Source of the DNA: Candidatus Enterousia sp.
GTDB taxonomy: Bacteria > Pseudomonadota > Alphaproteobacteria > Rs-D84
Direction of reading: 5' to 3'
Length of the DNA: 64,000 nucleotides
Assembly: GCA_045635825.1 (NCBI GenBank)
Contig: JAZTWM010000004.1
Span: 7,363-71,362, forward strand
The notes beneath the pieces were generated by a model. That model was not told the DNA's origin. It made no database searches and saw nothing but the letters and a program-made list of their open reading frames with translations. Shown one piece after another: positions 2,629 to 40,289 of this stretch; positions within the stretch are counted from its first letter, which is position 1, and each line of letters opens with the position of its first letter. Position numbers and translations under genes: made by a program.

Positions 2629-5589
2629 ATGAGAAAGATTGCAATTTTATCTATGTTGCTGGCTGTTTTTGTGGCGGATTCGCATGCTGCGATACGTCCA
2701 ACAGGTGGGCGTGCATCACGTGGTCCATCGTCTGCTGGTTCAACTGCAACAACATCAACCAAGGCGGTTGGTGCACGTTCTGCACGTACATCGACAACTG
2801 CAAAAAAGCCTGCTGTTGCGGCACGTGCGGCATCTAATTCTAAGACCGCGCCCAAGGCAACAGTTGCGGCACGTGCGGGGGTGACACAAAAGGTTATTGG
2901 TACAGGCACCAAGGTTGCAGCGGCGGCAAAGAATGTTGTGGTCAGTGAAGAATGTCAGGCCAAGTATGATGGATGTATGGATTCTTTTTGTATGCTGGAT
3001 AACGAGACCGGGGGCAGATGCTTATGCAGTGATAAAAATGCAGAGTTAGATGCAATCTTGGCTGAAATTGAAAAGTTAGATCAGCAATCTTATCAAATGG
3101 CGACATTTGGGGTCGAAAAAATTGAAATGGGTGCAGATGCAGATGCCGCGATTGCCAGTGCAAATGCAGCGGCACAATCTGTTATCAAGGAAACGGAATC
3201 AAAAAAAACAGCACGTAAAGCATTGGATTTATCGCTGTGGGATGAACCGGTTGATTTAGATGATACGGATGATGTTTTTGGTGGAATGGCATCATCACCG
3301 GTTGATGGCAAAGAAGGGGATGCGTTGCATCGTGCGGCAGCCCAGTTGTGTGTTGCCCAGATTCCAGAATGTGCGGGTGATTTAGATATGCTGCAGATGA
3401 TGTATGCACAGCGTATCAAGTCTGATTGTACGGCATATGAGAACAGTTTGAAGCAGCAAAAAAAATCCAGTACACAAAAATTGGCGACTGCAGAAAAAGC
3501 ATTAAGAGAGGCGGCGTTAGAGCAACTGCGTACAGCAAACAAATATGATTTAGGCCAATGTACGGTTGAGTTTAAAAAGTGTATGCAGACAACCGGTGGT
3601 TGTGGTGATGATTTTGCACAATGTGCATCGGTTGTTGCGTCTGATAATACGAATTTGAACAAATCTACATCCAGAAAACAGAAAAATTATGCGATCAAGG
3701 GGGCTGTGACCACGATTGAAATCTCTGCATCTACGTATGATGCATTGATGGCTAAAAAGCCCTTGTGTGAATCTGTTACAAAGTCTTGTGTTAATGTCGC
3801 AGGACAGGTGTGGGATACTTTCCTGCGTGAAGTCGCACCGCAAGTTAAAAATGCTGAATTGATTGCAGAAGATAAAGCAAGACAAGACTGTATCGGTAAT
3901 ATCTCTTCCTGTTTCCAAAAGGCCTGTAAGGATACAATGGATCCTAATGACCCAGATGGTTCATATGATATGTGTTTGTCCAGACCAGAAACCATGCTGA
4001 ATCTTTGTAAGATTCCTTTGAATGCATGTGGTATTGATGCTTCTTCTGCAGACAAGGCACAAGATTCTATGATCTGGGACTTCGTGGTCGCTAGACTTGC
4101 TTCTATGAGAGTTGATTCCTGCACAACAGAGGTTAAACAATGTTTGCAAAGCGATGATAGATGTGGTGAAGATTATGCTAATTGTATCGGATTGGATACG
4201 GATACAATAATTCGTATGTGCCCATATGATAAATTGACTGGCTGTCAAAAGGTTTATGGCGAAACTGATATTCGTGGTGATGCGGTTTATGAAGAGTTGG
4301 CCATGATGGTTCAGGGAATTATGCTGAATATTGATAATAACTTTATGGTTCAATGTCAAAATGCAGCGAATGAAGCCATGTTAAAGGTGTGTGGTGATAC
4401 AGAAAACTGTAATGCATTGACCACCGATAGCGGAATTGGTGCACGTGCATTGGATTATAAGATTTGTGAATATTCTGGTTCAGAAGATAGTCTGGATATT
4501 GATTATAACAAGTGTAGAACAGATATTTCACAAGTTTTGGACAGCGAATTGGGGCGTGTTGAAGGTGCAACCAGTGCCGGTTTGGGTGCGGTCACACCAT
4601 TCGCAGGCGTTATAGATGGTGTTATTTATTGGGAATCTGTGGACTTTGATGATGATGGAAAACTGATTTCTGTTGATGAATATTTGGCCAAGTTGGATGA
4701 CGCCAACATTTCTGCCCAGCAAAAAGAAAAAGTAAAATCTGAATTGGCGGTTTTGCAACGTAATATTGATGTTGCAATAAGTGCAATTGAATCTGATCCA
4801 ACGGTTCAATATTGTATGACAGGACGCGAAGTTCAGGGTATGAAAAAAATTGACAAAGACGGCGTTGCTACACGTACGCGTATTGGCGAAAAAAGTGCAG
4901 ATGCGGCACGCTTCCCAGAATTGACCAAGCAAATGCGTATGGTTATTGCGTCCGCGGCATTAAAAAAGGCCAAGGATAACTATTACAAAAAGTATGACGA
5001 GTTAAATGATAAAATGTTGCAGGATTATGCGACCTTGGGCGAGCGAATTTCAAAGATTCAAGGCGAAAATTCATTGGATGTAAAACGTGAATTGGCACGT
5101 AAATCATGTGTTGCATTTGTAGACATGGCATCTTTGCCAAAGTCACCAAATCCACCAAAAAGTGCATTTGGTAAAATTGCGGCCATGGTTGCAATTGTTG
5201 GTGCTGCGGTTGCAATTCCATTTACGCTTGGTACATCAACAGTTGTAATTGGTGCATTGACAGTGACAACTACTACAGGTGTAGGTGCATCCGCTGCAAT
5301 TGGTGCAGGCGCGGCAGTAGTTGCAGGTATTGGTATGTTGGGTAACGCTGGTTCTGGGAAAGCAAATGGCGAAGATAGCAAGGGGGTATTGGATTTGGTT
5401 GGTTCCAAGCAGCTTAATCAATGGAATTACAAGGAAACGATCACCACAACATTTGATTGGGATAAATTGATCTGTAAAAAATGTACACGTACACAAAAAT
5501 GTTCCAAGACCAAGAATCCGTTGTTTGGTAATAAATATTGTAAAACATGGGCGGATGCGGTTGAAACATGTAATGACACCCAGTTCTAA
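2629..5589 (+). CDS. secreted cysteine-rich repeat protein (family member A)
   Basis: 986 aa, RBS GGAAGGGA. Signal peptide MRKIAILSMLLAVFVADSHA, then an S/T/A/R-rich linker and CQAKYDGCMDSFC-x9-CLC. Modules QCTVEFKKCMQTTGGCGDDFAQC and SCTTEVKQCLQSDDRCGEDYANC. Gly/Ala-rich hydrophobic segment at aa 847-910 and tail VETCNDTQF. Collinear paralogue of 24966 and 27187. Confidence 0.85.
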   Translation: MRKIAILSMLLAVFVADSHAAIRPTGGRASRGPSSAGSTATTSTKAVGARSARTSTTAKKPAVAARAASNSKTAPKATVAARAGVTQKVIGTGTKVAAAAKNVVVSEECQAKYDGCMDSFCMLDNETGGRCLCSDKNAELDAILAEIEKLDQQSYQMATFGVEKIEMGADADAAIASANAAAQSVIKETESKKTARKALDLSLWDEPVDLDDTDDVFGGMASSPVDGKEGDALHRAAAQLCVAQIPECAGDLDMLQMMYAQRIKSDCTAYENSLKQQKKSSTQKLATAEKALREAALEQLRTANKYDLGQCTVEFKKCMQTTGGCGDDFAQCASVVASDNTNLNKSTSRKQKNYAIKGAVTTIEISASTYDALMAKKPLCESVTKSCVNVAGQVWDTFLREVAPQVKNAELIAEDKARQDCIGNISSCFQKACKDTMDPNDPDGSYDMCLSRPETMLNLCKIPLNACGIDASSADKAQDSMIWDFVVARLASMRVDSCTTEVKQCLQSDDRCGEDYANCIGLDTDTIIRMCPYDKLTGCQKVYGETDIRGDAVYEELAMMVQGIMLNIDNNFMVQCQNAANEAMLKVCGDTENCNALTTDSGIGARALDYKICEYSGSEDSLDIDYNKCRTDISQVLDSELGRVEGATSAGLGAVTPFAGVIDGVIYWESVDFDDDGKLISVDEYLAKLDDANISAQQKEKVKSELAVLQRNIDVAISAIESDPTVQYCMTGREVQGMKKIDKDGVATRTRIGEKSADAARFPELTKQMRMVIASAALKKAKDNYYKKYDELNDKMLQDYATLGERISKIQGENSLDVKRELARKSCVAFVDMASLPKSPNPPKSAFGKIAAMVAIVGAAVAIPFTLGTSTVVIGALTVTTTTGVGASAAIGAGAAVVAGIGMLGNAGSGKANGEDSKGVLDLVGSKQLNQWNYKETITTTFDWDKLICKKCTRTQKCSKTKNPLFGNKYCKTWADAVETCNDTQF

Positions 5590-17491: not shown

Positions 17492-18628
17492 TAAACTGTT
17501 TATTAGTTCAAGAATTTCTGCGGTTATTTTTTTGGGGTTAAAACGGTTTAATGATAACTGACTGTTTTTGATTATTTCTTGTCGTGGAATACGATTATGA
17601 TATATGTTTGACATGATTTGTGATAAAGCATGTTTGTCGCCAATATTAAATAATAGACCTGCTGTGCCATTTAAGAGTATTTCTTGTGCACCGTTTTTGT
17701 GCTGTGTTGAAATGTTTAGTGTGCCAACAGATGCCGATTCTAATAATACCATTCCAAAACCTTCGCTGTGACTGGATAATATGTGTGCCATAGATTTTTG
17801 CATATAACCAAAGGGATTAGTTTGTGTGCCTAGGAAGATAATATGTTCTTTGGCGGTGCTTTGATTTGCATGTTGTTCAAGACCGGTTCGATTTGGGCCG
17901 TCCCCAATAATCAATAGTTTTATATCGGTTGTATTTTCAGTTCTTAGGAAAATGGTAAATGCATCAATTATTGTATGGATGTCTTTCGGGCTGCCTAGTC
18001 TAGATATAGAGCAGAAGTATCGACCGGGATATGTGGGGCCTGTTTTTGCTTTGGTAATAATATGTTCTGGTGTAATAGGATTATATATCCGAATGATTTT
18101 GCTGGAATGTGATGGATAGTGTAATGTAAACTCGTCTTTAAATTCATCTGTTAATACAACCATTTTATCATAATATTTCAACCTGTTGATAAGTTTGCTT
18201 TTTTGAAAGAAGTCAAAAGAGCCATGACACCATGTTATTTTTGGGGTTTTGATATGCCGTAGTTCCTTGAAAAAGGATGCGTTTTTATAGTCTATGTATA
18301 TATCATGATTGTTGATATGGAATATTGAACGTCTGTACATTTTATATAAACTGAAGATTAGTTTACGCAGATTTTTGAGAGGGAAAAAATTTGTGCTTTT
18401 TTTTAGGTTTTCAAAATATGGTAACATGGGATAGATGACTTTTAGTTTTATTTCTGGGTGATGGTTAAACCAATCTTGGTAATATTTTTCTTGTAGTTTG
18501 GATTGCATATATACTGATATTTTTAGGTCGGGATATTTTAATAGTTCTTCTAGGGTGGAAATAAATACTGTTTCAACGCCCCCAACAATCATGTCGGGAA
18601 TACAAAAGGCAATTTTTTGTTTGTTCAT
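17489..18628 (-). CDS. glycosyltransferase, GT4-like (GT-B fold)
   Basis: ORF-track start 18709 is rejected because a terminator hairpin lies inside that extension. ATG at 18628 gives MNKQKIAFCIPDMIVGGVETV... EGFGMVLLESASVGT matches the E-x7-E GT4 motif. Confidence 0.85.
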   Translation of the reverse strand: MNKQKIAFCIPDMIVGGVETVFISTLEELLKYPDLKISVYMQSKLQEKYYQDWFNHHPEIKLKVIYPMLPYFENLKKSTNFFPLKNLRKLIFSLYKMYRRSIFHINNHDIYIDYKNASFFKELRHIKTPKITWCHGSFDFFQKSKLINRLKYYDKMVVLTDEFKDEFTLHYPSHSSKIIRIYNPITPEHIITKAKTGPTYPGRYFCSISRLGSPKDIHTIIDAFTIFLRTENTTDIKLLIIGDGPNRTGLEQHANQSTAKEHIIFLGTQTNPFGYMQKSMAHILSSHSEGFGMVLLESASVGTLNISTQHKNGAQEILLNGTAGLLFNIGDKHALSQIMSNIYHNRIPRQEIIKNSQLSLNRFNPKKITAEILELINSL

Positions 18629-18658
18629 TTTCTTACTTCTTTTTTGTTCGTTTTTTAT

Positions 18659-18886
18659 TGGAAAAAGAAAAGACCACATATTTTGTGGTCGGGAAGTTAA
18701 GAAAATCATACACTAAATGACCCCACCGGTTTTTGGAGTTTTTCCTGTTGTATGACCGGTGGCTTCCCGACATTATGGTGTCGAGAAAATGGCACGATGT
18801 GTGCCTGGTATTAATGGATTACGACAGTTAATGCCGTAGTGTACGGGTTTTCTTACGACCCCGAAGCCTTATCCCTAAGGTTTCGA
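18659..18886 (-). promoter_or_regulatory. candidate structured 5' leader (riboswitch/attenuator-like) or independent sRNA upstream of the glycosyltransferase gene
   Basis: Downstream of the promoter at 18893-18921. The minus-strand RNA has local hairpins CCUUA/UAAGG, GGGU/ACCC, CGUA/UACG, GGCAC/GUGCC, CGACA/UGUCG and CCACCGGU/ACCGGUGG. It ends in GACCACA-loop-UGUGGUC plus UUUUCUUUUU (18659-18690), 30 nt before the ATG at 18628. Confidence 0.5.
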
Positions 18887-18892
18887 TTTTGG

Positions 18893-18921
18893 ATTATATA
18901 TAGTAGGGCGTTGGATTTCAA
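18893..18921 (-). promoter_or_regulatory. sigma70-type promoter, TTGAAA-N17-TATAAT
   Basis: Read on minus strand: perfect -10, 5/6 -35 and 17-nt spacer. Divergent from the rpoA promoter. Confidence 0.65.
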
Positions 18922-18934
18922 GTCGTTTATCTAT

Positions 18935-18963
18935 TTGACTTTTGGGTTTTGTTGATATAAAAT
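18935..18963 (+). promoter_or_regulatory. sigma70-type promoter for rpoA, TTGACT-N17-TAAAAT
   Basis: 5/6 matches in both hexamers and a 17-nt spacer. About 70 nt upstream of the rpoA ATG. Confidence 0.6.
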
Positions 18964-19034
18964 ATCGACCGCATGTGCGTTGTGTACATGGCCGTTTTGG
19001 CGAAAATGATAAACTAAGCTAAAAGGAAACTTAA

Positions 19035-20063
19035 ATGATTGAAAAAAATTGGATGACCTTGATTAAGCCAAAAAAGCTGACAATCAAGCAAGATGAACAT
19101 AATCCTAATATTGCAACTTTGATCGCAGAACCATTGGAAAAAGGATTTGGTTTGACATTGGGGACTGCTTTGCGTCGTGTATTGCTGTCTTCTTTGCAGG
19201 GCTGTGCACCAATTTGCATTAAAATTGACGGCGTTCAGCATGAATTTTCCAGCATTTCTGGTGTTCGTGAAGATGTAACAGATATTATCTTGAACTTGAA
19301 GGGTGTTTATTTCAAGGCATTAACAGAAGGCCAGCACAAGGCATTTTTAAAGGTTAAAGGTCCCGCAGTTGTTACAGCAGGTATGATTGAAACAACAGGT
19401 GGTGTCGAGGTTATGAACAAAGATGCTGAAATATGCACTTTGGATAAGGGTGCAAATTTGGATATGGAAATCACATTGGGTACAGGTCGTGGTTATGTTC
19501 CTGCATCACAACATGCAGATGGTTTACCATTGGGTGTTATTCCAGTTGATTCTATCTTTTCACCAATCTTGAACGTTGCAAGTGATGTTTTGCCAACACG
19601 TGTTGGTCAGTCAACAGACTTTGATAAGTTGGAATTGACAGTTAAGACAAATGGTTCTGTTACACCAGAAGATGCGATTGCATTTGCGGCACGTATTTTG
19701 ACAGACCAGTTGGTTGTATTCATTAATTTTGAAGATCCTGCACAGTTAAATGCACCAACCGAAGAAGAAAAAGCAAAAGATGCATTGCCATTTGATCCAA
19801 AGTTGTTAAAGCATGTTGATGAATTGGAATTGTCAGTTCGTGCGAATAACTGCTTGAAGAATGATAAAATCAATTGGTTGGGTGAATTGGTTCAAAAGAC
19901 AGAAGCCGATATGTTGAAGACACCAAACTTTGGTCGCAAGTCTTTGAACGAAATCAAGGTTCAGTTGGAAGCCATGGGATTGGGCTTGGGTATGGAAGTA
20001 CCAGGTTGGCCGCCAGAAAATATTGCTGAATTGGCCAAAAAGTACGAAGACCCATACAAATAA
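19035..20063 (+). CDS. rpoA: DNA-directed RNA polymerase subunit alpha
   Basis: 342 aa. N-terminal domain [22 protein letters not shown]-terminal domain [45 protein letters not shown]. Confidence 0.97.
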
Positions 20064-20075
20064 ATTAAAATATAT

Positions 20076-20385
20076 GGATTCTTGTTGTGTTTGTCGGTCC
20101 TTATGTAGGTCAACTACACTGCGGACCGTCAAGCACTTCCAATAATCTCATATCTTTTAATTTCTTGGCTGGGCAAGGGGATTCTTGTTGTGTTTGTCGG
20201 TCCTTATGTAGGTCAACTACACTGCGGACCGTCAAGCACTTCCAATAATCTCATATCTTTTAATTTCTTGGCCAGGCAAGGGGATTTTTGGTATGTTTAT
20301 CGGTCCTTGTGTGGGGCAACTGCAACGGGGACCGGTAAAGCATTTCTAATAATCTTATATCTTATAGTTTCTTAGCAGGGCAGGG
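20076..20385. repeat. 3 x approx. 103-bp tandem direct repeat in the rpoA-rplQ spacer
   Basis: Copies start at 20076, 20179 and 20282. Copies 1 and 2 differ only by TG>CA at unit positions 95-96. Copy 3 is 104 nt and roughly 80% identical by manual alignment. Each unit contains an imperfect hairpin closed by CGGTCC...GGACCG. Confidence 0.95.
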
Positions 20386-20402
20386 AGTGAAGTAATATTT
20401 TC

Positions 20403-20430
20403 TTGCAATTTGCATGAAATTATATAGAAT
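20403..20430 (+). promoter_or_regulatory. possible promoter for rplQ, TTGCAA-N16-TAGAAT
   Basis: Moderate matches to -35 and -10, 97 nt upstream of the rplQ ATG and downstream of the tandem repeats. Confidence 0.35.
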
Positions 20431-20526
20431 AGAACGGATTTAATTCCACAATACTGGTTGAAATCAGGTTGTGGGCGTCTCAAGAATCCCACTAATTTCG
20501 GTGGGCAGAAACAAAAGGAGTAATCG

Positions 20527-20967
20527 ATGAGACATATGAAAGCAGGTCGTACATTCAATCGCGACACAAATGCACGCAAGGCCCTGTTTATTGGTCTGGC
20601 AAAAAACTTGATTGAAAAAGAACAGATTAAAACAACTTTGCCAAAGGCAAAAGATTTGCGTAGTGTCGTTGAAAAATTGATTACTCGCGCCAAGGTTGAT
20701 ACAGTTGCAAATCGTCGCTTGACAGCATCTGAATTGGGTAATTCTTCTGCAAAGACAGTTAAGAAATTGTTCGAAGTTTTGGGCCCACGCTATGCAACAC
20801 GTCCAGGTGGTTATACACGTGTTTTGAAGGCTGGTTTCCGTTATGGTGACGCAGCACCAATGGCGATTATCGAATTGGTTGATCGTGATGTAAATGCCAA
20901 GAAAGCAGCACCTGTTGCAGAAGTTGTTACAGAAGAAGTTGCTGAAACAAAGGCAGATGCAGAATAA
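20527..20967 (+). CDS. rplQ: 50S ribosomal protein L17
   Basis: 146 aa, [30 protein letters not shown]...[23 protein letters not shown] is typical L17. Confidence 0.95.
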
Positions 20968-20986: not shown

Positions 20987-21010
20987 GCCCGCCATTTGGC
21001 GGGTTTTTTC
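20987..21010 (+). terminator. rho-independent terminator after rplQ
   Basis: CCCGCC-ATTT-GGCGGG followed by T6. Confidence 0.85.
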
Positions 21011-21044
21011 TTGATATAATACCCACAAGCAGGGTGGTGTATGA

Positions 21045-36282: not shown

Positions 36283-39200
36283 ATGTCCCATACAAAACAT
36301 TTGGCGGATTTGTTGAAAGTCTGCAGTATTTTGCCAGCCTTGGTAATTATGCCTGCAATGGCGGAAAGTCTTTCGGAACGTCAGGTTATAACACAAGATA
36401 AAACATATAAGAATTTGACGATTGATGGCATCTCTTCTTCTGTTGCAAATAACGGTGGTGTTTTTTATTTAGAGGATGTTCAGGATGTGCTTTTGACTTT
36501 TAAAGGCGAAAGTAAGTTTGTTAACAACTCTATTCTTAATGGTGGGATGGGAGCTGTTATTGGTAATGGTTGGTTGTCTACGAAGGATGCTGATAAATGG
36601 AATCCATATACACCAGGCGGTCATATACTTTTTGATGGTGATACATTATTTATGAATAATACAACTAATAATGCAAATGGGGCTGGGGCGATATTTAATT
36701 ATGGTATTGGAACAGTGGATAATCCAGATATTTTATTTAATGGAGAGGCGGAGTTCATTGGAAACTCGTCTACTGGGGTGAGTAATTCTTTTTGTGTCGG
36801 TGGTGGGGCGATATACCATCGTGATGGGATGATTGTATTTAATGATGATGCGAATTTTGTTGCTAATTCCTCGGCATCAAAGGGTGGGGCGATTATGGCC
36901 GCTGGTGATATTGTATTTAGGGGCGAAGCAGATTTTGAGGAAAATAAGGCCTCGTCCCAGGGTGGTGCATTAGCCATTTTGGGTGGTAATGTTGTTTTTG
37001 AAAAGGAGGCAAGTTTTAAAAATAATTCTGCGAATGCTGGGGCAGCGATATCTATGGATGCATCAAATGCGTCTGTAACATTTAAGGATTTTGTGTTGTT
37101 TGATAGAAATACAGGGACTGCTACATTGTGGAATAATTCTTCTACTGGGACAGTTGTGTTTGAAAATGGTGCCAAGTTCTATCAAAATACAAATACTCAA
37201 AATGGAACTTTGCAGAATGCGGGTGATGTGACTTTAAATTCTGGTGATTTTGTATTTATGCATAATACAGGTGGAAATGGTGGCGGTCTAAAAAATGTTG
37301 GGACGGTTACTGTAAATACCGATGGTGATGTGTTGTTTGATACAAATATTACCAAGTCTACTGGTGCTGCGGTTGATAATGGTGGGACTTTAACATTAAC
37401 GGCAGCAAATGTATCGTTCTTGGGAAATACATCTGATGCAGGGTATGCAGGTGCGATATTTAATTCAGGTGATATGAGCATCTTGGGCGCAACAAATGTG
37501 TTCAGCAATAATATTGCTAAGGATACAGGAACAACCAAGCACGGTGGTGGCGCAATTCATAATCGCGGAGCTAAGGGGACTACAACATTGGTTCTTGGAA
37601 CGAAAGACAGTGTGAATGTCTTTAGTGCTAATCAGTCGAATGCACATGGTGGGGCAATTGTTGCACGTGCGTTTGATGGAGATACACAAAATTCAGAAGT
37701 AGTTATAAATGGTGATACAACATTTGTTGGTAATACTGCGGCATTAAATGGTGGTGCAATTTGGAATAATGTGGCAAAAAGTGGATCTACAACAGGGACA
37801 GCAAGTTTTGCCATAAATGGTGAGGTTGAATTTAAAAATAATATTGCAAATGGTGTTGGCGGTGCAATCTTTAATGGATCGCAAATGACAATTGCCAAGG
37901 CAGAATTTGATGAAAATATTGCGTACGGTAATTATGCGGGTGCGATTTATAATTCTGCATCTGGTGATATTGCAAATGTAGTTGCGGATTTTGATGAAAA
38001 CAAGGTCTTGAATGATAACTTTGCTGCGGGTGGTGCAATTGCTAACATAGGAAAAATTGGTAGCCTGACAGGTTTATTTGAAGAAAATGTTGTAAATGCA
38101 ATGGCAGGCGATGTTTATGCGACTGCTAAGGGAGGTGCGATTTATACATATGCAGGTTCTTCTATTGAATCAATTGTTGCGGATTTTGATGGCAATTCAG
38201 CTGTAAGTGCTGGAGATGCAATAGGGGGGGCAGTAGTAAATGATGGGGTTGTTGGTGTGTTGAGTGCCGAGAAATATGGTTTTGTAAACAATGCTGTAAC
38301 TGCCAAAGCGAATGCATGGGCAGGTGCATTGTATAACAGCCAAGATGCGATCATTAATGAGTTGTCCGCAAGCTTTACTGGAAATTCAGCAAATGGAACG
38401 GATTGGGCGATTGGTGGTGCAGTGGTTAACTTTGGTACATTGAATGTGACATCTGGGGTGTACGCTAATAATTCAGTTAGTGCTTCTGCTAAAGAAGGTT
38501 ATGCTATGGGTGGTGCAATCTATAATGCCAATGTGCTGAATTTTGTTGGTGACGTTGAATTTAGAAACAATGTGGTAAGTGGTGCAAGAGATTATGCATA
38601 TGGTGGTGCGATTTATAATGACGGCACACTGAATTTTGATGCCAATGCGTTGTTTGCGAATAATACGGTGGCAGGTGGTGCAAATGATATTTATAACGCA
38701 GGAATTATAAATGTTAATAAAGATGCTGTTTTGACATTGGATGGCGGTATTATTGGCGAAGGTTCTGGTGTGATAAACATTGCCCATGGTGCCACAATGA
38801 ATATCGGTACTGCAGTAGTCGAGCAGGCAGAAATAAATATTGATGGTACTGTTGTTGCATCTGTTTTAAGCAATCGTTCTTATGGTCGTTTGTTTGGTGA
38901 CATTAATGCAGGTCAGCTTGCTGAGTTGCAGTTAAATGTTGGTGCAGCTGGTTCTTATACAATATTTAGAGATGACGTGGATATTAAAGTGTCGGCTGGT
39001 AAGGCATATGATGCAGCGGTTTTAGAGGATGGTACAGTTGTTATTACAACAAAATCTGTTGCAGATATTGCGGATGATGCTGGTATTTCAACACAGGCGG
39101 CGGGTGCAGTTGCAAGTTTGGCAAATACAACCAGCAACAAAGCACATCGTGTATCATTGGCGTTGCAAGAAGCATTGAATGCAGGTGATGCAGCATATGT

Positions 39201-40125
39201 AGAGGCAGAGACAGCCAAATTGAACCCAACAGATAAGCCTGTTGCCCAGGCGGCGACAACATCTGTGCAGAATCAGGTTTTGTCATTGGCGTCAGGCCGT
39301 ATGAGCGGTGGCATGTCCGTTGGTCGTTCGGGTGGTGACGAGTATGCCCAAGAAAATGGTTTCTGGATTCAGGGGCTGTTTAATAAGTCAAAGTTTGCAG
39401 ATCAATTCCATGGATATACACGTGGGGTTGCATTGGGTGCGGATACTTTGATTGATCGTAAATGGACAATTGGTGGTGGTTTGGCATTTAATGGCAGCGA
39501 TGTTCATGCCAGAAATGGTGCACATACCAGTATTGATACCAAAACATTGTTCTTGTATGGTCAGTATAAGCCAAACAATTGGTTCGTAAATGCGACTGCA
39601 ACATATTCTATGTCTGAATATACAGAAAATAAAACTGTTGCAGGTGTTGGACTGGGGGCATCCTATGATGTTGATGCATATGGTGCACAGTTTATGACCG
39701 GTTACGATTTTGCGACAGGTATCACAACACAGGCGGGTATGCGTTATCTGTATATTGCCCAGGATTCGTACATTGATGATCGTGATGCACAAATCATGGC
39801 GACAGATACGGATTTCTTGACAGGTGTTGCAGGGCTGAAATATGCGTTCGCAATTGAAAATGATTGGGCAATCCAGATTCGACCAGAATTGTCAGCGTCT
39901 GTGACATATGACTTTGTCAGTGATGATTCTGCAACAACGGTTGTGACCCCAGGGGTAGAAGCGTATGCGGTAAACGGTAATCGTTTGTCACGTATTGGTG
40001 GGGAATTTGGTATTGGCTTCACCGCACAGTATAAAGGTGTTGAAATGTCCCTGATGTACGATTTGGATTTGCACAAAGATTATACATCCCAGACAGGTAT
40101 GTTGAAATTGCGTGCCCAATTCTAA
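36283..40125 (+). CDS. autotransporter with Pmp-type (GGA[ILV] / FxxN) passenger repeats
   Basis: 1280 aa, RBS AAGGAG. Signal region ...ALVIMPAMAES. Dozens of GGAI[YFW]N and F[VIEK]xN repeats. C-terminal beta-domain (GFWIQGLFNKS...LKLRAQF). Confidence 0.9.
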   Translation: MSHTKHLADLLKVCSILPALVIMPAMAESLSERQVITQDKTYKNLTIDGISSSVANNGGVFYLEDVQDVLLTFKGESKFVNNSILNGGMGAVIGNGWLSTKDADKWNPYTPGGHILFDGDTLFMNNTTNNANGAGAIFNYGIGTVDNPDILFNGEAEFIGNSSTGVSNSFCVGGGAIYHRDGMIVFNDDANFVANSSASKGGAIMAAGDIVFRGEADFEENKASSQGGALAILGGNVVFEKEASFKNNSANAGAAISMDASNASVTFKDFVLFDRNTGTATLWNNSSTGTVVFENGAKFYQNTNTQNGTLQNAGDVTLNSGDFVFMHNTGGNGGGLKNVGTVTVNTDGDVLFDTNITKSTGAAVDNGGTLTLTAANVSFLGNTSDAGYAGAIFNSGDMSILGATNVFSNNIAKDTGTTKHGGGAIHNRGAKGTTTLVLGTKDSVNVFSANQSNAHGGAIVARAFDGDTQNSEVVINGDTTFVGNTAALNGGAIWNNVAKSGSTTGTASFAINGEVEFKNNIANGVGGAIFNGSQMTIAKAEFDENIAYGNYAGAIYNSASGDIANVVADFDENKVLNDNFAAGGAIANIGKIGSLTGLFEENVVNAMAGDVYATAKGGAIYTYAGSSIESIVADFDGNSAVSAGDAIGGAVVNDGVVGVLSAEKYGFVNNAVTAKANAWAGALYNSQDAIINELSASFTGNSANGTDWAIGGAVVNFGTLNVTSGVYANNSVSASAKEGYAMGGAIYNANVLNFVGDVEFRNNVVSGARDYAYGGAIYNDGTLNFDANALFANNTVAGGANDIYNAGIINVNKDAVLTLDGGIIGEGSGVINIAHGATMNIGTAVVEQAEINIDGTVVASVLSNRSYGRLFGDINAGQLAELQLNVGAAGSYTIFRDDVDIKVSAGKAYDAAVLEDGTVVITTKSVADIADDAGISTQAAGAVASLANTTSNKAHRVSLALQEALNAGDAAYVEAETAKLNPTDKPVAQAATTSVQNQVLSLASGRMSGGMSVGRSGGDEYAQENGFWIQGLFNKSKFADQFHGYTRGVALGADTLIDRKWTIGGGLAFNGSDVHARNGAHTSIDTKTLFLYGQYKPNNWFVNATATYSMSEYTENKTVAGVGLGASYDVDAYGAQFMTGYDFATGITTQAGMRYLYIAQDSYIDDRDAQIMATDTDFLTGVAGLKYAFAIENDWAIQIRPELSASVTYDFVSDDSATTVVTPGVEAYAVNGNRLSRIGGEFGIGFTAQYKGVEMSLMYDLDLHKDYTSQTGMLKLRAQF

Positions 40126-40152
40126 ATAAATTATAATAATTTATCTGCAAGC

Positions 40153-40198
40153 GAACCCGCCGGTTTATGTAGCGTCTGTACACTGCACCGGCGGGTTC
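40153..40198 (+). other. 12-bp-stem hairpin downstream of the autotransporter gene
   Basis: GAACCCGCCGGT - 22-nt loop - ACCGGCGGGTTC; no T-run follows. Confidence 0.5.
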
Positions 40199-40260
40199 AT
40201 CTTGCATCTAAATCATTCTAATTTATTTACAATAAAATCTAATTTTCGTGTTTATGGGTT

Positions 40261-40289
40261 GGATGGCGTAAATTGCCATCCTTTGTTTT
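40261..40289 (+). terminator. rho-independent terminator-like hairpin
   Basis: GGATGGC-loop-GCCATCC followed by TTTGTTTT. Confidence 0.55.

Follow-up and report, generated by a model that had tools for sequence, protein, structure and literature searches.

Introduction

Several families of short non-coding repeats are transcribed together with the bacterial genes they follow, among them the repetitive extragenic palindromic (REP) sequences, the Correia and enterobacterial repetitive intergenic consensus (ERIC) elements, and the mycobacterial interspersed repetitive units (MIRU). Here, we analyse a 64,000-nt stretch of DNA (the window) from Candidatus Enterousia sp., an alphaproteobacterium (contig JAZTWM010000004.1 of GenBank assembly GCA_045635825.1), in which the spacer between rpoA and rplQ holds a tandem array of long hairpins. 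At this site, one member of a family of long imperfect palindromes has recently been amplified in tandem, to a copy number that varies among strains. Palindromes of the family measure about 100–170 nt and lie at or overlap a stop codon in the orientation of the gene. Their arms are lineage- and locus-specific and covary, and their tip, 5′-GCUCAUGUA-N7-UACACUACGC on the sense strand (CUUAUGUAGGUCAACUACACUGC in the window), is nearly invariant.

REPs and the bacterial interspersed mosaic elements (BIME) of enterobacteria and pseudomonads are, like the Enterousia hairpin, non-coding imperfect palindromes of 3′ untranslated regions (UTRs) and intercistronic spacers that are co-transcribed and often clustered or arrayed. 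Many REPs lie less than 15 nt from a stop codon; REPs within this distance stall ribosomes and lower translation, and REPs stabilise the upstream mRNA (PMC12306157). However, REPs are 20–40 nt long, GC-rich, species-specific, present in hundreds of copies, marked by a 5′ GT(A/G)G and tied to REP-associated tyrosine transposases (RAYT), whereas the Enterousia hairpin measures 100–170 nt, has a tip common to very different genomes and occurs at low density (2 sites in 64 kb). A GTAG adjoins only its 4–5-bp tip stem, on the complementary strand, and no RAYT (Y1 transposase) gene was seen in 684 kb of flanking sequence.

The Correia elements (CREE/NEMIS) and the ERIC sequences (also called IRU) are near-palindromes of about 100–150 bp, as is our element. 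They are co-transcribed as long RNA hairpins, can be processed by RNase III or RNase E and can thereby alter the stability of the flanking mRNA. ERIC has a conserved central inverted repeat, which is a further likeness, and the TA duplications of Correia elements have a counterpart in high-GC relatives of the Enterousia hairpin. Nevertheless, there is no sequence similarity, Correia and ERIC elements are found in both orientations with no link to stop codons, their hosts are confined to Neisseria or to enterobacteria and vibrios, and the rpoA-type copies, unlike Correia elements, show no visible target duplication.

The variable number tandem repeats (VNTR) of the MIRU type are tandem 40–100-bp units in intercistronic spacers of mycobacteria that are oriented with transcription, touch the flanking stop codons and vary in copy number among strains. 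The array in the window shares this layout and this variability, but MIRUs are not long palindromes, carry small overlapping open reading frames (ORFs), and are unrelated in sequence and host. The Rickettsia palindromic elements are alphaproteobacterial, measure about 100–150 bp and persist at orthologous sites; unlike our element, they insert in frame within genes and RNAs and not after stop codons, and no sequence relation to them was seen, though no comparison aimed at one was made. In E. coli, an attenuator and an RNase III site in the rplL–rpoB intergenic region set the ratio of ribosomal-protein to RNA-polymerase gene expression within one transcription unit. That spacer, too, is structured and lies between genes of these two kinds, but it is single-copy, locus-specific and of the reverse gene order.

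In kind, therefore, the element is a repeat of the REP, Correia/ERIC and MIRU type and not categorically new. Its combination of traits is unusual, comprising an invariant tip, host-adapted arms, anchoring at stop codons, gene orientation and a preference for core genes, and it lacks the features that define the REP, Correia/ERIC and MIRU-type families. We could not find the hairpin family described anywhere: the literature on Enterousia, on palindromic or stop-codon repeats and on the literal sequences yielded no description of the element.

Results

Three tandem units in the rpoA–rplQ spacer

The spacer between rpoA and rplQ is 463 bp long and holds three head-to-tail 103-bp units (20076–20384, a 309-bp array). 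Tandem Repeats Finder reports one strong array there (20076–20382, period 103, 3.0 copies, 88% matches, score 458). Between units 1 and 2, 101 of 103 positions are identical and the sole difference is TG>CA in a small linker loop, while unit 3, aligned to unit 1 with a single 1-nt indel, agrees with it at 83 positions (about 80%). The CGGTCC/GGACCG stem is kept in all three units, and unit 3 has GTGG/CTGC where the others have GTAG/CTAC. A first-pass annotation, made from the sequence alone, had reported the units, their identities, the intact stem and the spacer length, and the repeat finder, the ORF list and the alignment bear it out on each of these points. The units fold with −34.7, −34.7 and −33.2 kcal/mol (z = −5.1, −5.3 and −4.1 against dinucleotide shuffles) and the whole spacer with z = −9.1. 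Their core and tail motifs occur three times in the window, where none is expected by chance, and the window contains no further exact or near-exact copy (up to 3 mismatches) of either.

The phase in which the repeat finder cuts the array is arbitrary. The first hairpin runs from 20062, inside the rpoA stop codon (TAA, 20061–20063), to 20163, so that the stop codon is its foot and the 12 nt ahead of 'unit 1' are its outer left arm. It consists of an AT-rich outer stem, the CGGTCC/GGACCG middle stem and the tip TTATGTAGGTCAACTACACTGC; copies 2 and 3 lack the AT-rich outer left arm (Table 1). The linker CTTGC-N-GCAAGG(G/A)G, as in the first mini-hairpin, is also found 3′ of units in many other species and loci. 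An A-rich run precedes the first hairpin, and a U-rich run (TCTTTTAATTTCTT / AUAUCUUUUAAUUUCUU) lies 3′ of each hairpin. The earlier statement that the array has no terminator-like T-runs is thus inaccurate as to the runs, although the terminator scan flags nothing at them and calls no terminator-like site in 20064–20400. The placement of the element as intercistronic, inside the transcribed rpoA–rplQ spacer, is upheld. The spacer owes its unusual length to a modular make-up, in which the repeat array is followed by a promoter-like box and by the conserved leader of rplQ.

Table 1. Features of the rpoA–rplQ region and of the second element site (window positions)
Feature	Position	Strand	Evidence
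rpoA, 342 aa	19035–20063	+	ORF list; Pfam RNA_pol_L, RNA_pol_A_bac, RNA_pol_A_CTD on identical protein
Element copy 1 (type A), complete ~102-nt imperfect hairpin	20062–20163	+	fold −44.0 kcal/mol; R1 127 bits; R2 54 bits
Linker mini-hairpin 1 (CTTGGCTGGGCAAGG), 15 nt	20164–20178	+	sequence, folding
Element copy 2 (type A), core hairpin then U-rich tail AATAATCTCATATCTTTTAATTT	20179–20266	+	R1 102 bits; R2 46 bits
Linker mini-hairpin 2 (CTTGGCCAGGCAAGG), holds the TG>CA difference of units 1 and 2	20267–20281	+	
Element copy 3 (type B, about 80% identical to type A), tip stem GTGG/CTGC	20282–20370	+	
Degenerate linker 3 (CTTAGCAGGGCAGGGAG)	20371–20387	+	
Promoter-like TTGCAA-N16-TAGAAT upstream of rplQ	20403–20430	+	scan, 9/12 matches, not above chance alone
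Conserved rplQ leader	20446–20526	+	in essentially all 78 species spacers
rplQ (L17, 146 aa)	20527–20967	+	ORF list
Canonical intrinsic terminator after rplQ (GCCCGCCATTTGGCGGGT + TTTTTCTT)	20987–21014	+	terminator scan
Second, diverged family member, ~107-nt hairpin, tip TTTATGTAGCGTCTGTACACTGC	40123–40229	+	R1 40.3 bits, E 6.5e-5; R2 72.3 bits, E 1.6e-15
Canonical terminator past the second element (GGATGGC-GTAAATT-GCCATCC + TTTGTTTT)	40261–40289	+	sequence

Copy number among close relatives

Contigs that encode exactly identical RpoA or L17 differ in the number of units. The spacer is 256 nt long with one type A unit in four of them (L001, L002, L009 and L010), 250–257 nt with one type B unit in two (L012 and L013), 360 nt with A+B in five (L003, L004, L007, L008 and L014) and 463 nt with A+A+B in the window, the remainder of the spacer being nearly identical among all these strains. 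The triplet is thus a combination of two alleles (A and B) of one ancestral unit, and the occurrence of one, two or three units among strains with the same RpoA makes it a young copy-number polymorphism. The A-only, B-only and A+B states cannot be derived from one another by assembly collapse; A+B assemblies may be collapsed A+A+B, and short-read collapse of A+A could hide further three-unit strains. One suggestion in the first-pass annotation was a young tandem amplification of a small RNA gene, of which the youth holds and the small RNA gene does not, since the amplified unit belongs to a dispersed family. Within Candidatus Enterousia, the triplet offers a strain marker of the VNTR kind.

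Conservation of the hairpin among Enterousia species

The 80 closest rpoA loci in GTDB species genomes come from Candidatus Enterousia or unnamed alphaproteobacterial metagenome-assembled genomes of ruminant, horse, bird, human and termite guts. Spacer length varies between 90 and 633 nt among 78 Enterousia species, about 50 of which have a homologous hairpin of about 105 nt extending from the rpoA stop. Arrays of two or three units stand at rpoA in four loci (L016, with three units, L019, L038 and L047), two loci carry two subtypes side by side (L036 and L041), and three hold internally deleted remnants (L015, L028 and L040). About one third of the species have no element at this site, with unrelated hairpins or nothing in its place. 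The outer stems are clade-specific yet complementary (ATTAAATTCTGTGG/CTCACATAATTTAAT, AACAATTTATATGG/CTCATATAAATTGTT, AATTGTGATAACGCGCC/GACGCGTTCTGACAATT), and the tip ATGTAGGTCAACTACAC is near invariant across the Enterousia units.

Covariation supports the fold. Among 58 homologous units, 95.5% of the alignment cells are paired and 13 of the 18 pairs show changes on both sides, values that none of 500 shuffles reached, and controls with the alignment slid out of register pair in at most 44%. The structural conservation suspected on first reading is therefore real.

The same hairpin after other genes

We searched with two covariance models, R1, built from the homologous Enterousia units, and R2, a broader family model run without filters. 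In the window, R2 finds exactly two sites, the rpoA array and a diverged element at 40123–40229, which corrects the earlier statement that the window holds no other copy. The second element (fold −46.7 kcal/mol, also recorded as inverted repeat I2) begins at the TAA stop of a 1280-aa ORF (36283–40125) and has TA on either side (TA..TA), where the left TA belongs to that stop codon. A canonical terminator follows (Table 1), so this element sits inside the 3′ UTR and is not the terminator itself; a separate canonical terminator also lies 3′ of the element in three other loci.

R1 matches occur directly after the rpsM stop in four loci, directly after the rpsK stop in four, often in tandem, and directly after the rplQ stop in four. 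In 683 kb of Enterousia rpoA loci, R2 returns 68 matches, all on the operon strand and all following rpsM, rpsK, rpoA or rplQ. The exact degenerate core pattern has no match in the GTDB species genomes. A role specific to the rpoA–rplQ pair, as first proposed, thus gives way to membership in a dispersed and widespread family of palindromic repeats.

Spread beyond Enterousia

Scanning metagenome contigs with the tip pattern GCTCATGTA-N7-TACACTACG retrieved at least 120 stretches of 25–68% GC from termite gut, rumen, sediment and other samples. Almost all the listed tips cap a hairpin of 100–170 nt; the conservation of the tip in this set is partly ascertainment, because the scan pattern is the tip itself. 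The inner stem shows all four Watson–Crick pair types at most positions (93 non-redundant members). Counting gene contexts by distinct upstream C-termini, we found 54 with a co-oriented upstream ORF among the matches listed, with a median distance of 40 nt from stop codon to tip, which places the foot of the hairpin at the stop codon (TAA in 39, TAG in 10 and TGA in 5). The recognisable upstream genes are rpoA, rpsK, rpsM, rplQ, rpsR, dnaN, efp, groEL, infB and ybaB; others encode large outer-membrane-type proteins. In a further 22 contexts the orientation is antisense only; most of these are later units in an array or belong to high-GC composites. Five other contigs also have multiple copies and tandem arrays, joined by the same GCAAGGGG-type linker; one of them (L117) has up to 4 element sites in 11.7 kb. 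Tandem growth is therefore a property of the family and not of the rpoA–rplQ locus.

The tip pattern has no match in 2.9 million viral contigs, and BLAST of one high-GC element against plasmids gave none. Rfam 15 detects only a tRNA in the window at the gathering score, nothing credible in 19900–20700 at E values up to 10, and no match at the element in 18 metagenome loci or in L128; the Rfam comparison suggested by the first-pass annotation thus assigns no family to the units.

Which strand folds

The G–U wobbles of unit 3 had been taken as a hint of constraint on the RNA of the + strand. For that unit the idea stands, as the + strand folds with −33.2 and the − strand with −13.3 kcal/mol, and in the rpoA-type alignment G·U cells are about twice as frequent as A·C cells. 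It does not carry over to the family: of 160 unique members, 126 are more stable as the complement of the mRNA strand, by a mean of 6 kcal/mol, and 19 as the sense strand; among high-GC members the complement is better in 34 of 36. This undercuts the G–U argument. In whole-arm alignments of the sense strand, A·C/C·A cells outnumber G·U cells by 330 to 198, a count that leaves out the tip, whose one conserved mismatch inflates the figures, whereas the in-register inner stem has the opposite sign (G·U 135, A·C 98). The asymmetry is due in part to conserved pyrimidine mismatches of the sense strand (C·A, and U·C/C·U in 'AUCU' boxes), which on the complement become U·G and tandem G·A. One position of the tip exchanges C·A for U·G (72 versus 14 members).

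Signs of mobility

On high-GC contigs the element takes the form of a composite of about 280 bp, in which two modules are inverted around a CCC-GNRA-GGG centre and bounded by terminal inverted repeats of about 30 bp (TAGGGCCTGTTCAC...). All five such composites that were read have TA on both sides (L103, L109, L138, L148 and L155); in an automated check, TA flanks were present at about 10 of 151 elements. Nested copies occur in two loci (L150 and L146), and in the former an IS630-family insertion sequence (IS) with its transposase gene has inserted at a CTAG of the element, its ends differing from those of the element. The ORFs overlapping high-GC elements were either spurious or ordinary genes of the cell. 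Integrase, HUH and RAYT genes were not seen in the 684 kb of flanking sequence.

Surroundings of the array and other repeats in the window

Downstream of the array, the promoter-like box (TTGCAA..TATAAAAT) has counterparts in the spacers of eleven other loci; this recurrence in many species suggests that rplQ can be transcribed independently of rpoA. It is followed by the conserved leader, composed of a P1 hairpin (20446–20474), GTCTCAA (20477–20483), a P2 hairpin (20488–20505), GCAGAAAC (20505–20512) and a Shine–Dalgarno sequence (20515–20520). P1 shows compensatory changes in 9 of its 12 pairs, and the leader has no match in Rfam. It is a candidate for an autoregulatory leader of L17. The repeat element itself was rejected as an rplQ leader: the promoter-like box stands between the units and the rplQ ribosome-binding site, units also follow unrelated genes, and the different structure just described occupies the place of a leader.

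The spacers of some other Enterousia species contain a small ORF of 33–52 aa (L094 5105–5206, L039 about 5151–5273, L016 5412–5570, L042 2093–2233) with a basic N-terminus and a hydrophobic ..VFAQIFRILFFG.. motif; it is absent from the window. Upstream, rpoA is not preceded by rpsM–rpsK (or rpsD) in 17489–19034. In their place are a glycosyltransferase gene on the opposite strand (17489–18709) and a 1207-aa ORF (13838–17461) with a signal-peptide-like N-terminus, and the classical alpha operon is thus broken up in the species of the window; in other Enterousia species rpsM and rpsK lie about 1–3 kb upstream of rpoA.

Short-period (6–30 bp) coding repeats at 10171–10289 and 13299–13361 (TTG/TTGTGG; ACCACAACCAAA) are low-complexity protein repeats unrelated to the array. 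Palindromes of about 30 nt with an A-run, a GC stem and a T-run (AAAAAACCGCC..GGCGGTTTTTT; repeat families D3 and D4) lie at 1596, 5588, 17465, 29684, 30182, 44666, 44716, 56308, 59062 and 61332. These are ordinary bidirectional intrinsic terminators, and the organism thus uses canonical terminators.

Discussion

The array between rpoA and rplQ is probably a REP/MITE-like, co-transcribed palindromic repeat and not a dedicated regulator of these two genes. Part of what characterises a miniature inverted-repeat transposable element (MITE) is present: the element is short and non-coding (100–170 nt, where a MITE is under about 500 bp, with pairing kept rather than reading frame, and a unit of 103 nt that is not a multiple of 3), and the whole of it is a near-palindrome, with discrete repeats of about 30 bp at the ends in high-GC relatives. 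As to dispersed copies within one genome, the counts cover contigs only, with 2 sites in the 64-kb window, up to 4 in 11.7 kb of L117 and 54 gene contexts over contigs; TA flanks, likewise, mark the high-GC composites and the second copy in the window but few of the elements checked automatically. A related autonomous IS with the same ends was not found in the surroundings of the elements. The first-pass annotation had named, as evidence against its regulatory ideas, a widespread dispersed MITE- or REP-like repeat without structural conservation; the dispersed repeat is what we find, and its structure is conserved.

Several observations weigh against reading the element as a repeat of this kind. 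The copy at rpoA persists, with compensatory changes, in species that share only 83–96% identity in RpoA. The rpoA-type copies show no target duplication (flanks ..AAAT|AAATT...AATTT|CTT), and the neighbourhood of the elements contains neither a transposase with matching ends nor any recurrent mobility gene. Conservation falls on the centre rather than the ends, the reverse of what is expected of a deletion-derived MITE. The abutment on stop codons, the sense bias and the enrichment at housekeeping genes point to selection or a specific mechanism and not to neutral insertion. The retention of one tip of about 25 nt across genomes of 25–68% GC is also unlike ordinary REPs or MITEs; the hairpins, moreover, start at the stop codon, take the orientation of the gene and prefer core genes of high expression. 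The better folding of the complementary strand in most members fits poorly with a simple function as an mRNA hairpin. Finally, every functional step of the scheme given below is one that we infer.

On a rival reading, the element would be a cis-acting RNA module of 3′ UTRs and intercistronic regions, with an invariant tip (an internal loop UCA/CUAC, a UGUA/UACA stem and a bulged C) on which a conserved RNase or other protein docks. Selection would have placed the foot of the hairpin at the stop codon so that terminating ribosomes govern the folding, and the array would tune the dosage of the signal between rpoA and rplQ. The conserved tip and the covarying arms over the whole GC range speak for such a module, as do the 54 co-oriented, stop-abutting contexts against about 4 clear antisense cases on low- and mid-GC contigs, the placement of all 68 R2 matches on the operon strand, the highly expressed housekeeping genes upstream, the long retention of the rpoA copy, the C·A to U·G exchange in the tip, which is typical of isosteric wobble pairs, and the lack of mobility genes near the elements. 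On the other hand, the sense strand mostly folds less stably, terminal inverted repeats, TA duplications and transposon-like nesting mark the high-GC relatives, about one third of Enterousia species do without the element at rpoA, internally deleted remnants exist, the conservation of the tip in metagenomes is partly ascertainment, and no Rfam family matches. On balance, we regard a dedicated RNA module as a possibility, though a rather doubtful one. Alternatively, the complementary strand may be the one that acts, as single-stranded DNA or as an antisense transcript, and the hairpin would be acted on in a strand-specific DNA transaction, for example recombination of the HUH or integrase type or transposition of a single strand; the gene orientation would reflect this mechanism, and the tandem units would be by-products of repeated insertion or of replication slippage on the hairpin. 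The 126 members with the better-folding complement, the 34 high-GC ones included, and the whole-arm excess of A·C/C·A cells (G·U on the complement) agree with this, as does the conversion, deduced from the sequences, of the AUCU/AUCU mismatches into tandem G·A and of the tip C·A into U·G. The layout also resembles an integron attC site, an imperfect palindrome 3′ of an ORF that is folded from the bottom strand. However, the bias is reversed in the inner stem and in the rpoA-type alignment, unit 3 is far more stable on the + strand, and integrase, HUH and RAYT genes are missing from the flanking sequence. The ends, too, are lineage-specific (AAATTAAAT..., GAGCT..., GGGCC...), without the R′/R″ boxes (RYYYAAC...GTTRRRY) of attC sites or a GTTRRRY core, and the hosts are core operons, where attC sites belong to cassette arrays. 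Moreover, energy rules favour purine-rich mismatches, so that the asymmetry may partly follow from the conserved pyrimidine loops. Action through the complementary strand is, in our judgement, improbable.

It is considerably less probable still that the units are intrinsic terminators or attenuators of rpoA, each extra copy of which would cut read-through into rplQ. The long hairpins with a U-rich run after each unit, the A-rich run before the first and the promoter-like box downstream would suit such a role, yet no terminator-like site was called in the array, and about 20 nt separate the GC-rich stem from the U run, whereas an intrinsic terminator has a short GC-rich stem directly before its U tract. 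In many species the element is present without a promoter before rplQ, so read-through must occur there; other copies precede a separate canonical terminator, and the element also stands between rpsM and rpsK with no promoter in between. As for an assembly artefact or a small protein-coding region, we give either almost no credence. Short-read assemblers can go wrong on units as alike as 1 and 2 (98% identity), but arrays of clearly diverged units in other species and loci, including the three units of L016, together with the mutually non-collapsible A, B and A+B states, make the artefact that the first-pass annotation had allowed for unlikely. GTG-initiated ORFs of 53 and 61 aa cross the units (20087–20248 and 20190–20375), and one pipeline called the 61-aa gene in L007; coding is contradicted by a unit length that is not a multiple of 3, by changes that compensate for pairing and by frequent indels. 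These small ORFs were dropped on reading the sequences, along with sites for CsrA, IHF, NtcA and TyrR, CtrA-like sites, an ssoA CS-6 box, SECIS elements, retron msd, IS200/IS605 ends and self-cleaving ribozymes.

Taking the units as a co-transcribed repeat of the REP/MITE kind, we propose that unequal recombination or slippage, acting between short repeats at the unit ends (AATTTCTTGC / GCAAGG), adds units to the array and removes them, and may also have joined alleles A and B of the single ancestral unit into one array. The units would be transcribed together with rpoA and form imperfect hairpins of about 45 bp, the foot of the first lying inside the footprint of the terminating ribosome. By analogy with REP and Correia/ERIC elements, such hairpins may stall termination, serve as processing sites for RNase III or RNase E, or block 3′ exonucleases. 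The likely net effect would be to uncouple rpoA from rplQ, more so with more copies, and rplQ might then be served by its own promoter-like box and two-hairpin leader.

More tentatively, the tip 5′-GCUCAUGUA-N7-UACACUACGC on a stop-anchored hairpin might define a widespread, undescribed class of 3′-end elements at housekeeping genes of Proteobacteria-like bacteria, in which the tip would be read by a conserved cellular factor or by a strand-specific nucleic-acid transaction, and arrays such as the one at rpoA would be natural dosage variants. A functional tip would open a new way into the post-transcriptional control and 3′-end biology of core operons in uncultured bacteria; should the element instead be selfish, it would provide a clear example of mobile DNA that takes stop codons as safe harbours.

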